From Nitrospirota bacterium (GTDB lineage: Bacteria; Nitrospirota; Nitrospiria; Nitrospirales; Nitrospiraceae), in NCBI GenBank assembly GCA_963701855.1, contig CAVPBK010000010.1, positions 1-64,000 of the forward strand: DNA of 64,000 nucleotides. Reading direction: 5' to 3'. The first letter of the stretch is position 1; every line of letters starts with the position of its first letter. The notes below the pieces were generated by a model, which ran no database searches, was not told the origin of the DNA, and worked only from the letters and a program-made list of their open reading frames with translations. The position numbers and the translations under genes are program-made. Of the stretch, positions 6,916 to 8,624 are shown in pieces.

Positions 6916-7102
6916 CCAGGAAGAAAGGTCCACCAAAAGGCGTAGTGGATCCCGTAGTGGAATAGGCGAGTAAAAGCGGGTAAGTACGGGTAACGTCCCG
7001 TGTGCCGTCTCTTCAGGCCTAGCGCGGTGATTTGCATCTTTTCAAGAGGTTTCGCACTTCCATCAAAACGGTTTCCTTGTATCTTGAATCTGTGTGGCGT
7101 CT

Positions 7103-7275
7103 ATGCTCTGGTTATTTAGTCAGGACGTGATAGACCGCTCTTTCCTTGGTCCTCCTCCGCTGAGACCGTGGTTTAGCATGGATCGTCACGTCCTTCCTCC
7201 CGAGAGCTCGTACGGTTGCCGGGGCCATTGAAGCCCGCATCATGTGCAAGGCCGAGCGGCATGGGAGGCCGTATC
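7103..7275 (+). ncRNA. predicted IS110 bridge RNA
   Basis: Two stem/internal-loop domains (7122-7194 and 7196-7268). ACGGTTGC at 7212-7219 equals 8246-8253; GCAT at 7237-7240 is the reverse complement of 7103-7106; GGTTTAG at 7170-7176 is the reverse complement of 8253-8259. Confidence 0.75.
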
Positions 7276-7283
7276 ACAAGGAG

Positions 7284-8237
7284 GTGTGTAGGGAAACGAG
7301 CCCGCTGTATGTTGGGATTGATGTGTCCAAAGCCCAGCTGGACGTCGCGGAGCGCCCCTCGGGGGAACGGGCCGTGATTCCCCATACCGAACAGGCCATC
7401 GCCGCGCTCGTGGAGCAGTTGGGCCCCCGCCGCCCAGCTTGCGTGGTGCTTGAGGCGACAGGCGGTCTGCAGGCGCCCCTGGCCAGTGCGCTCGCGCTCG
7501 CCGGGATTCCTGTGGCCGTGGTGAATCCCCGGCAGGTGCGCGATTTTGCCAGAGCCACCGGCCAGCTCGCCAAGACAGACGCGATCGAGGCACAGATCTT
7601 GGCCCGCTTTGCCGAGGCGGTGCGGCCCGCCCCACGCCCGTTGCCGGATGAGGCGATCCAGGCATTCAGTGCGCTCCTCACGCGGCGCCGACAACGGATC
7701 GAAATGCTTGTGGCGGAACAGCACCGCATGCGGACGGCGCCGCGCCCCATTCAGCGGCAGATCCAGGCCCATCTCACCTGGTTGAAGCAACAGCTCGCGC
7801 TGCTGGACGAGGACGTGACGCACCGCATCCAAGCCACGCCGCTCTGGCGTGAACAGGAAGATCTGCTGCGCAGCGTGCCGGGCATCGGGCCCGTGGTGAG
7901 TCGGACGCTCCTTGGAGAACTGCCCGAGTTGGGCAGGCTGACCCATAAGCAGATCGCGGCCTTGGTCGGCGTGGCGCCGTTGAATAGGGACAGCGGGAGC
8001 CTGCGTGGCCGACGCAGGATTTGGGGCGGGCGCGCCGTCGTGCGCGGCGTCCTCTATATGAGCGCCGTCGTCGCGGCGCGCCACAACCCCATCATCACAG
8101 CCTTCTATCAGCGATTGCGAACAGCCGGCAAGGCGCCAAAAGTGGCGCTGGTCGCGTGCATGCGCACGCTGCTGACGATGCTCAACGCCATGGTCAAGCA
8201 TCGAACCCCTTGGCGTCTGTCAGCGCAGGGCGCTTGA
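7284..8237 (+). CDS. IS110-family DEDD recombinase/transposase (possibly inactive)
   Basis: [30 protein letters not shown] motifs. Start codon is uncertain. Confidence 0.88.
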
Positions 8238-8624
8238 CAATCAAGACGGTTGCTAAACCGCTGTTCCTAAGACTAGACCTGTGCTCCAAACCTCTGTTTT
8301 GTGACCGTACCTGCTCCTAGGTCACCCTTTATCTCCCCTTTATATGCAGGTAAGAGTTACGGGCTTACCTTACAAAACTACCCATTTACCATGTGTTTTC
8401 GTAAGGTCTTCGCTCTGCCTATTACTTTCCTTTTTTCCCGCAAGGAACACCTCTAGTTTAGGTTGGCCCACCACAATTCAGGTGTCCACATGGAATGATT
8501 CCCACTGACGTAAAATCCTTGACGGTCCTATAGGCGAGGGGGGATATTTCGCCTTTGGTAGTCGTGGCACCCACTCATTGATGGAAGCATGCAGGTAGCC
8601 AATGGCTATTCAACGACAGGGTTC

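Follow-up and report, generated by a model that had tools for sequence, protein, structure and literature searches.

The 64,000-nt stretch analyzed here (the window; positions 1 to 64,000 of contig CAVPBK010000010.1, Nitrospirota bacterium assembly GCA_963701855.1) carries at positions 7076-8254 what is very probably an insertion sequence of 1.18 kb that belongs to the IS110 group within the IS110 family, for which we propose an IS621-type mechanism. Its left end is predicted to encode a bridge RNA with a target-binding loop (TBL) and a donor-binding loop (DBL) built around a CT core. This view is supported by the Pfam assignment of the recombinase, its likeness to the IS621 and ISCro4 enzymes, covariation within the RNA structure and covariation of the guides with the flanking DNA. 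The analysis itself established to which protein family the recombinase belongs, where the element ends, that the fold is conserved, and that the guides match the flanks and ends and covary with them. The preliminary description of this locus, made from the letters of the window, had already proposed an IS110 element with an IS621-type bridge RNA and two guide loops around a CT core, and the Pfam matches, the structural likeness and the covariation bear this out.

Recombinase gene and ends of the element

The element contains a single long open reading frame (ORF) at 7242-8237 on the forward strand, 331 codons from ATG 7242 and free of frameshifts or stop codons. Its product matches PF01548 (DEDD_Tnp_IS110; E 1.7e-21, 77 bits vs. 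a cut-off of 29) and PF02371 (Transposase_20; E 1.9e-18, 67 bits vs. a cut-off of 21.3). Solved bridge recombinases are matched over nearly their full length. The best of them is ISCro4 (9t56, E 4.2e-40, residues 8-313), followed by the Escherichia coli IS621 enzyme (structures 8wt6-8wt9), which has the same two domains and is alignable over residues 8-312 (8wt6, E 1.6e-39). In the alignment with relatives the catalytic columns hold D, E, D and the Ser-Gly pair, also aligned with ISCro4, while the segment around the fourth acidic residue reads KTDAIEAQ in the window where ISCro4 has KTDAVDAR.

The ends were defined by comparison with relatives. The window belongs to contig C10 of a 4.3-Mb, 15-contig genome (G000), in which relatives about 60% identical in protein comprise four near-identical copies of an element designated IS-A (C6 ~360.7-362.0 kb, +; C12 ~13.2-14.5 kb, +; C13 ~97.3-98.5 kb, -; C9 ~507.8-509.0 kb, -), one element on C5, a remnant on C6 and a fragment on C15. 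As shown by alignment, the window element, all four copies of IS-A and the element on C5 have a left block CT-TGTATCTTG and a right block CAAGACRGTTG-CT in common and diverge outside these. Another genome of the genus holds an 82%-identical copy at a different locus (G171, locus L096). Its alignment with the window is confined to the segment from AAACGGTTTC-CT through GTTG-CT-AAACCG, and for this pair, as for the four IS-A copies, the DNA is unrelated beyond ~5-10 nt from the cores. A motif search in this and other genomes found a CTTGTAT-type left end upstream of the RNA in 76 of the 78 rows examined. In this family set, left ends were located by CTTGTAT with three one-base variants allowed and right ends by ACAG, ACGG, ATAG or ACCA followed by N, Y and GCT after the stop codon.

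Homology with the relatives thus begins at CT-TGTATCTT and stops at the CT at 8253-8254. The left end had previously been placed at 7101; three related elements in G000, the 74 loci with a full-length RNA match described below and G171 set the true core 25 bases further left, at 7076-7077. The left non-coding end spans 7078 to ~7283 (~206 nt) and the right end 8238-8252 (15 nt after the stop codon). The element has no terminal inverted repeats. The sole inverted repeat is a 5-bp subterminal one (CAAGA 8242-8246 / TCTTG 7082-7086), which brackets the donor sequence; short subterminal repeats are described for the IS110 group by Durrant et al. (PMC11208160). The features of the locus are listed below, where LTG and RTG denote the left and right target guides, and LDG and RDG the left and right donor guides.

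7071..7075, + strand: left target half (LT) GTTTC, flanking DNA adjoining the left core; matches the putative LTG in 4/5 bases; GTTTC also flanks the G171 copy
7076..7077, + strand: left CT core, the true left boundary of the element
7080..7085, + strand: putative -10 box TATCTT of the junction promoter; overlaps the TCTTG repeat at 7082-7086
7092..7270, + strand: predicted bridge RNA, its start placed ~7 nt after the -10 box; covariance model R1 (see below) matches 7118-7270 with 147.5 bits
7122..7194, + strand: predicted TBL domain (domain 1); outer stem 7122-7135/7181-7194, inner stem 7148-7151/7164-7167
7140..7146, + strand: putative LTG CTTTC-CT; 6/7 against flank GTTTC-CT at 7071-7077
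7170..7176, + strand: putative RTG GGTTTAG; 7/7 against CT-AAACC at 8253-8259
7177, + strand: candidate handshake base C, 3' of the RTG; complementary to donor G8252
7196..7268, + strand: predicted DBL domain (domain 2); stems 7196-7201/7263-7268, 7206-7210/7253-7257 and 7222-7225/7233-7236
7212..7219, + strand: putative LDG ACGGTTG-C (ACGGTTGC); 8/8 identical to the right end at 8246-8253
7245..7250, + strand: putative RDG UGCAAG; pairs with CT-TGTA at 7076-7081 through one G:T wobble
7251, + strand: candidate handshake base G, 3' of the RDG; complementary to target C7075
7284..8237, + strand: recombinase gene; DEDD RuvC-like domain and Tnp domain, Ser-Gly at 7992-7997
8234..8239, + strand: putative -35 box TTGACA of the junction promoter; overlaps the stop codon TGA at 8235-8237
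8246..8252, + strand: left donor half ACGGTTG at the right element end; identical to the putative LDG and part of the last block common to IS-A, the C5 element and G171
8253..8254, + strand: right CT core
8255..8259, + strand: right target half (RT) AAACC, flanking DNA; complementary to the putative RTG in 5/5 bases; AAACC also flanks the G171 copy

With these ends the circle junction is predicted to read ACGGTTG-CT-TGTATC, in place of the ACGGTTG-CT-ATGC given before. Judged by its sequence, the joined right and left ends contain a sigma-70-type promoter, TTGACA-17 nt-TATCTT, which supersedes the formerly suggested TTGACA-N14-TATGCT. Among 56 distinct junctions of the family the best -35 hexamer sits at 17-nt spacing in 44; TTGACA is the -35 box in 24 and TTGACT in 17, and TATCTT is the -10 box in 33. 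A consensus scan of the integrated state (6950-8400) gave 0 sigma-70 promoter-like sites.

Fold and guides of the predicted bridge RNA

A starting fold was obtained with MAFFT and RNAalifold from four G000 sequences and consisted of two stem-loops with internal loops. From the same four sequences we built the covariance model R1, in which the guide segments were kept unpaired, and ran it on 80 loci related to the recombinase (54-67% identity; labelled Nitrospira, Methylomirabilota, Dehalococcoidia, Gemmatimonadales and others). A match of at least 130 nt, on the recombinase strand and directly upstream of the gene, was found at 74 of the 80 loci. Of the remaining six, L017 gave no match, L026 is cut by a contig end, L062, L054 and L090 gave partial or short matches (L090 with an additional weak match on the opposite strand), and L047 gave a weak opposite-strand match only.

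In the resulting alignment (A4), standard pairs occupy 93.2% of the cells vs. 38.6-51.9% when partners are slid by 1-3 columns, and compensatory changes occur at 25 of the 32 model pairs, values reached by 0/500 shuffles; as A4 was fitted to R1, these counts lean towards the structure. The TBL helices (1 and 2) are paired in 96.6% and 98.9% of cases, with 12/14 and 3/4 compensatory pairs. DBL helices 5 and 6 are paired in 93.6% and 96.6%, and the basal DBL helices are weaker (73-80%). A model-independent run of MAFFT and RNAalifold on 26 diverse members recovered both TBL helices and two DBL helices, with compensatory changes at 17 of 33 pairs; the basal DBL stem was not recovered in that run. 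The two-domain fold first read from the single sequence agrees with the family covariance model and with the covariation, and its individual stems are present: AGGACGTGA (7122-7130) with TCACGTCCT (7186-7194) and GGTC (7148-7151) with GACC (7164-7167) in domain 1; CCTCCC (7196-7201) with GGGAGG (7263-7268), GCTCG (7206-7210) with CGAGC (7253-7257) and GGGC (7222-7225) with GCCC (7233-7236) in domain 2. The real support for the fold is comparative.

The target guides were examined in 63 distinct TBL guide pairs, of which 54 rows were usable for the RTG and 60 for the LTG, rows missing an end motif or the ORF having been dropped. The reverse complement of the RTG agrees with the five bases that follow the core in 0.96, 0.89, 0.94, 0.91 and 0.81 of the rows (expected 0.25-0.36), and the next two positions match in 0.15 and 0.30, as expected from column composition. 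Since RTG positions 6 and 7 behave as chance, this guide would comprise 5+2 bases. The LTG agrees with flank positions -5 to -1 in 0.52, 0.73, 0.60, 0.72 and 0.97 of the rows (expected 0.25-0.39, for the last 0.76), and positions -7 and -6 give no signal. Neither the LTG nor the RTG total was reached in any of 2000 shuffles; the shuffles ignore relatedness between rows, and the silent guide positions serve as an internal control. Covariation thus supports guide lengths of 5+2 (LTG) and 5+2 (RTG), which predicts a 12-bp target.

Several earlier guide assignments change with these data. The complementarity of GTGGTTTAG (7168-7176) to the right flank CTAAACCGC (8253-8261) stands, yet only seven of its nine bases act as predicted guide, the two at the 5' side (GT) showing no covariation and being conserved scaffold. 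The concern that the RTG could pair internally with 7131-7138 loses force, since the consensus fold pairs 7132-7135 with 7181-7184 and not with the RTG. The left target guide formerly read as GACCGCTCT is replaced by CTTTC-CT at 7140-7146, and the target GACCGCT-CT-AAACCAC by the predicted (C/G)TTTC-CT-AAACC. The proposal that loops should covary with flanks and ends across copies was followed, and they do so with both the flanks and the right-end variants.

For the donor guides, ACGGTTGC had been recognized as identical to the right end, and the family confirms the correspondence. Among the 21 rows that depart from ACAGTTG (~17 distinct elements), the LDG copies the right end in 19, namely in 9/9 rows with ACGGTTG, 4/4 with ACAGTCG, 5/5 with ACAGGTG and 1/1 with ACAGCTG; in the two others (L045 and L019) it is one base off. 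The RDG is conserved across the family. The GCAT formerly assigned to it, as the complement of a left end ATGC, was a misreading that followed from the misplaced left end. Single-base handshake positions, a concept taken from PMC11208158, are also visible next to the guides. Next to the RTG, on its 3' side, a C faces donor G in 71/71 rows, both bases being invariant, and the base 3' of the RDG faces the last target base as G:C in 68 rows, A:T in 3, G:T in 4 and A:A in 1 (n = 76). For second handshake positions no pairing pattern was seen among the family rows.

In the mechanism that we propose, for which transcription, circle formation, RNA binding and chemistry are carried over from IS621 within the frame given by Durrant et al. 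2024 (PMC11208160) and PMC11208158, the element would leave as a circle. Joining of the right end to the left end over one CT core would create the TTGACA-17 nt-TATCTT promoter, from which a bridge RNA of ~180 nt would be transcribed from the left end. In its first internal loop, LTG CUUUC-CU would equal the target top strand left of and including the core, and RTG GGUUUAG would complement CT-AAACC. The second loop would address the element's own joined ends by LDG ACGGUUG-C and by RDG UGCAAG, complementary to CT-TGTA. The RNA-bound DEDD/serine recombinase may then recombine the circle with a (C/G)TTTC-CT-AAACC site.

This anatomy is shared with IS621 in most respects. Both have a CT core on either side, a long RNA-encoding left end, a promoter rebuilt across the junction of right and left ends, two stem-loops with internal loops in which the top strand left of the core is repeated on the 5' side and the top strand right of it is complemented on the 3' side, single handshake-type bases beside RTG and RDG, and a target in a genomic repeat. 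According to PMC11208160, the IS621 donor loop is built like the target loop and every guide includes the core. The two elements differ in guide length, as LTG and RTG have 5+2 bases each in the window whereas nine and four are given for IS621 in PMC11208160, a source that also reports longer RTGs in other orthologues. Unlike IS621, the window shows no convincing 5' stem-loop, a feature that belongs to the IS621 consensus and lies outside the definition of the IS110 family. In relatives the spacer from the left end to the TBL ranges from a few nt to ~60 nt, and L077 leaves no room for such a stem-loop. The longer RTG (7 vs. 4 nt), the shorter LTG and the missing 5' stem-loop are within the known variation of the IS110 group, and the element is therefore a further natural member of a known family.

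The IS1111 group, as described in PMC11208160, resembles the window element in having a DEDD recombinase, a bridge or seek RNA and site-specific insertion. Its RNA, however, lies in a long right end and its subterminal inverted repeats measure 7-17 bp, vs. a left end of ~206-210 nt, a right end of 15 nt and a 5-bp subterminal repeat (CAAGA/TCTTG) in the window. The combination of a long left end, a short right end and a left-end RNA is the criterion given there for the IS110 group. The protein domains, the CT cores, the unequal ends, the junction promoter, the two guide loops and the covariation of the guides all assign the element to that group in the sense of Durrant et al. We conclude that this is one more natural bridge-RNA element, which alters nothing fundamental. 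It defines a clade of 74 or more elements from genomes labelled Nitrospira, Methylomirabilota, Dehalococcoidia and Gemmatimonadales. The target code of this clade is a clean 5+2 / 5+2, and its 63 distinct natural guide pairs are ready material for studying guide rules.

Alternative readings and the state of the window copy

Several observations weigh against the bridge-RNA interpretation, in addition to the fitted alignment, the dropped rows and the relatedness between rows mentioned above, and to the single copy in the genome and the state of the recombinase gene considered below. The LTG mismatches its own left flank at position -5 (C vs. G), the base after the LDG match is C instead of T at the second core base, and the RDG needs a G:T wobble to pair. 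Across the family the right donor half CT-TGTAT is invariant, probably owing to its second role as -10 box, and the claim for the RDG is limited to complementarity. By single-sequence folding domain 1 alone is better than 199/200 shuffles (z -3.83), domain 2 alone is unremarkable (z -1.26) and the whole RNA does not outdo its shuffles (z 0.06), which makes single-sequence folding of the whole RNA unusable as evidence. An IS621-like 5' stem-loop is not evident, the segment 7088-7121 folding at -3.3 kcal/mol (z -0.13). Part of the window stretch was present in 20 of 24 listed public sequencing runs, with at most 0.42 of its words. The contigs of four of these runs (X1, X2, X3 and X15; of these X2 and X3 may include the source sample of the window) contained neither a circle junction nor an empty site. 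No RNA contig of the public runs reached at least 95% identity, and those found are 90-95% alike and hence come from relatives.

An anatomy with the left CT at 7101-7102, the ATGC junction, LTG GACCGCTCT and RDG GCAT, as in the preliminary description, has the complementarity of GCAT (7237-7240) to ATGC (7103-7106) on its side. It would leave positions 7078-7100 outside the element, yet these are inside it, since their sequence CTTGTATCTTG is common to IS-A, the C5 element, the C6 remnant and G171, and the CTTGTAT-type left end recurs across the family. That anatomy also entails a promoter spacer of 14 nt and a left guide that matches poorly, both of which had been noted as caveats. They vanish with the left end at 7076-7077, which yields the 17-nt spacer and a flank-covarying LTG; the spacer concern arose because the end was misplaced. 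Other copies indeed have a left end different from the one first described, and the same right end. We consider the earlier left-end anatomy refuted by the ends of the relatives, as far as sequence comparison can decide, and give it next to no credence. The case shows that bridge RNA guides became readable from sequence only after the ends were fixed by comparison, and that a 25-nt error in one end spoiled half of the guide reading. It also appears very improbable that the 5' region is a mere structured leader regulating translation of the recombinase, with guide matches stemming from conserved element parts or chance. Such a role would fit the 3' strand of the basal DBL stem, which is Shine-Dalgarno-like in 23 of 59 distinct relatives, and the in-frame ATG inside the DBL. 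On the other hand, the flanks differ from copy to copy and from element to element, and the loop bases follow them, the DNA is unrelated a few nucleotides outside the cores in the pairs compared, and the RTG positions past the fifth base, at expectation, act as an internal negative control.

More serious is the question whether the bridge-RNA element in the window is still functional, and we put the chance that this copy is impaired a little below even, judging from its sequence. In such a disabled relic the RNA would remain readable, but the recombinase would be poorly made, absent or catalytically weak, and self-mobility would be lost; we rate this as slightly short of an even chance. At 7290-7292, where the family has its ATG start, the window has AGG, 5 nt after AAGGAGG (7278-7284). 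Of 66 distinct relatives, 54 carry an ATG at codon -9 to -6 relative to the conserved V-G-I-D, shortly downstream of GGAG. The window lacks it, and its remaining in-frame starts are GTG 7284, overlapping the Shine-Dalgarno sequence, and ATG 7242, inside the donor loop. The fourth DEDD residue is E (GAG 7587-7589), whereas the 76 aligned recombinases have D in 72, H in 3 and E in 1, the window itself. The nearest relative, G171, has ATG and D at the two altered positions. In IS621, alanine substitutions of DEDD residues abolish recombination (PMC11208158). The element is present as one copy in G000. Against impairment stand the frame, open over all its 331 codons, the D to E change, which retains the carboxylate, and the possibility that GTG 7284 or ATG 7242 acts as a start. 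Also, a soil contig of run X1 has the right end with CTAAACCGCTG, following the window to 8263 and then unlike it, a metagenome hint that the element or a close variant occurs in at least one other context. The recombinase of a related copy might work in trans, though only with fitting RNA-binding.

Two further observations concern soil contigs that resemble the bridge-RNA element. A contig of run X3 is identical to 8253-8450 and, to the left of this part, does not resemble the element, again no more than a metagenome hint. At window position 7144, the last non-core LTG base, contigs of X1 and X3 have T for C; a U there would still wobble-pair with the bottom-strand target G, and the X3 contig spans the same left junction.

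Within 7263-7284, GGGAGG, the 3' strand of the basal donor-loop stem, resembles a Shine-Dalgarno sequence, and a second, free AAGGAGG comes with 16 nt that are inserted in the window element when compared with IS-A. We considered whether the basal DBL stem hides the Shine-Dalgarno sequence as a family rule and rejected this, since GGAG, GAGG or AGGA occurs in the 3' strand in only the 23 of 59 distinct relatives mentioned above, so that a coupling of folding and translation is not general.

Target repeats, sX15 and neighbouring sequences

The guide-specified 12-mer CTTTC-CT-AAACC (CTTTCCTAAACC) occurs six times in the genome vs. 0.5 expected. All six occurrences lie in one repeat context, AGGGTGGTGA.A.CG-CTTTCCTAAACCGC (C2:29339, +; C2:8256, -; C6:789238, -; C6:72181, -; C11:9579, +; C12:97625, +), and C6:488866 (-) is a further locus of this tRNA-Arg-like repeat family. 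The site used by the window copy, GTTTC-CT-AAACC, has two further occurrences in the genome. One of them is the anticodon arm of a genuine tRNA-Arg(CCT) gene (C6, complement 7484-7560), in which the CT core corresponds to anticodon bases 35-36. The seven repeat copies resemble this gene in 17-21 of 23 nt of the anticodon arm and variable loop, and contain no other part of the tRNA.

The right flank of the element (8250-8300) shares 82-87% identity with two of four repeat copies, the best-matching ones; the left flank is too diverged to match them. The window copy thus appears to sit in one diverged repeat resembling the tRNA-Arg(CCU) anticodon arm. The G171 orthologue is inserted in sequence of this type too, and with GTTTC-CT its LTG fits its own flank perfectly. 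While the window target is such a repeat, that of IS621 is a repetitive extragenic palindromic (REP) element. Durrant et al. (PMC11208160) describe REP elements as typical IS110 targets and cite insertion into Tn21 inverted repeats; members of the family usually target a genomic repeat. A limited literature search, which is not proof of absence, found no tRNA-arm-like targets of IS110 bridge RNAs.

It is conceivable, although we consider it unlikely, that the element and its genus orthologue are programmed for the tRNA-Arg(CCU) anticodon arm itself and that the genus carries repeats copying no more than this arm and the variable loop, which act as harmless landing pads or decoys and spare the real tRNA gene. 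That gene is one LTG base off the guide, its 12-bp target is identical to the site used in the window, and in the one genome examined it contains no copy of the element.

Some of the tRNA-Arg-like repeat copies are bounded by GGTGTCCACAAAA-like inverted ends. The evidence that the repeat around the target is a miniature inverted-repeat transposable element with GGTGTCCACAAAA ends is mixed, an att remnant being another candidate, and Rfam scans of two repeat loci gave no match. Two loci, C5 ~91534 (+) and C12 ~100063 (-), carry a copied 3' half of tRNA-Arg(CCT) that starts in the anticodon loop and ends with CCA, with 27/29 and 29/29 nt identical in the 3' part. Integrative elements inserting into this tRNA gene leave such 3'-half copies.

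An Rfam scan of the element region found no bridge-RNA family and gave only a sub-threshold antisense match to sX15. The sX15 model (RF02234) aligns end to end with window 7109-7274 on the reverse strand at 27.5 bits, the gathering score being 55. Conversely, R1 matches the sX15 type locus on Xanthomonas plasmid pXCV183 with 56.4 bits (E 1.5e-10; L115:1885-2028, i.e., pXCV183 116384-116527, -), on the strand opposite sX15. Because both matches are opposite to the sX15 strand, sX15 seems to be complementary to a bridge RNA of the IS110 type, which would give this existing Rfam family a suggested identity. Schmidtke et al. 2011 (PMC3300014) describe an antisense partner of sX15, asX7, and ten homologues in Stenotrophomonas maltophilia K279a; asX7 would then likely be the sense, bridge-RNA strand transcript. 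No recombinase gene lies beside the sX15 locus of pXCV183, where the adjacent 98-aa ORF has no Pfam match.

The IS-A copies show the same guide logic, as their guides GTGAC-C and GGGGCAG fit the flanks TGAC-CT and CT-GCCCC. The right flanks of three of the four copies are alike, which points to another repeat target. The copy on C13 has two 1-nt insertions and a split protein match and is thus probably frameshifted. The remnant on C6 (C6:713979-714358, -; L008) retains the bridge-RNA region in full (R1 score 144.5 bits), after which no more than 83 codons of the recombinase are left, and C15:29285-29497 (-) is an isolated C-terminal IS110 fragment. In the window itself the IS110 element is surrounded by mobile-element debris. 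An IS3-like transposase fragment (5659-6378, -) with HTH_Tnp_1 and HTH_21 in an ORF without the catalytic domain precedes it, and a TPR-PilZ protein is encoded downstream (8628-9581, -).

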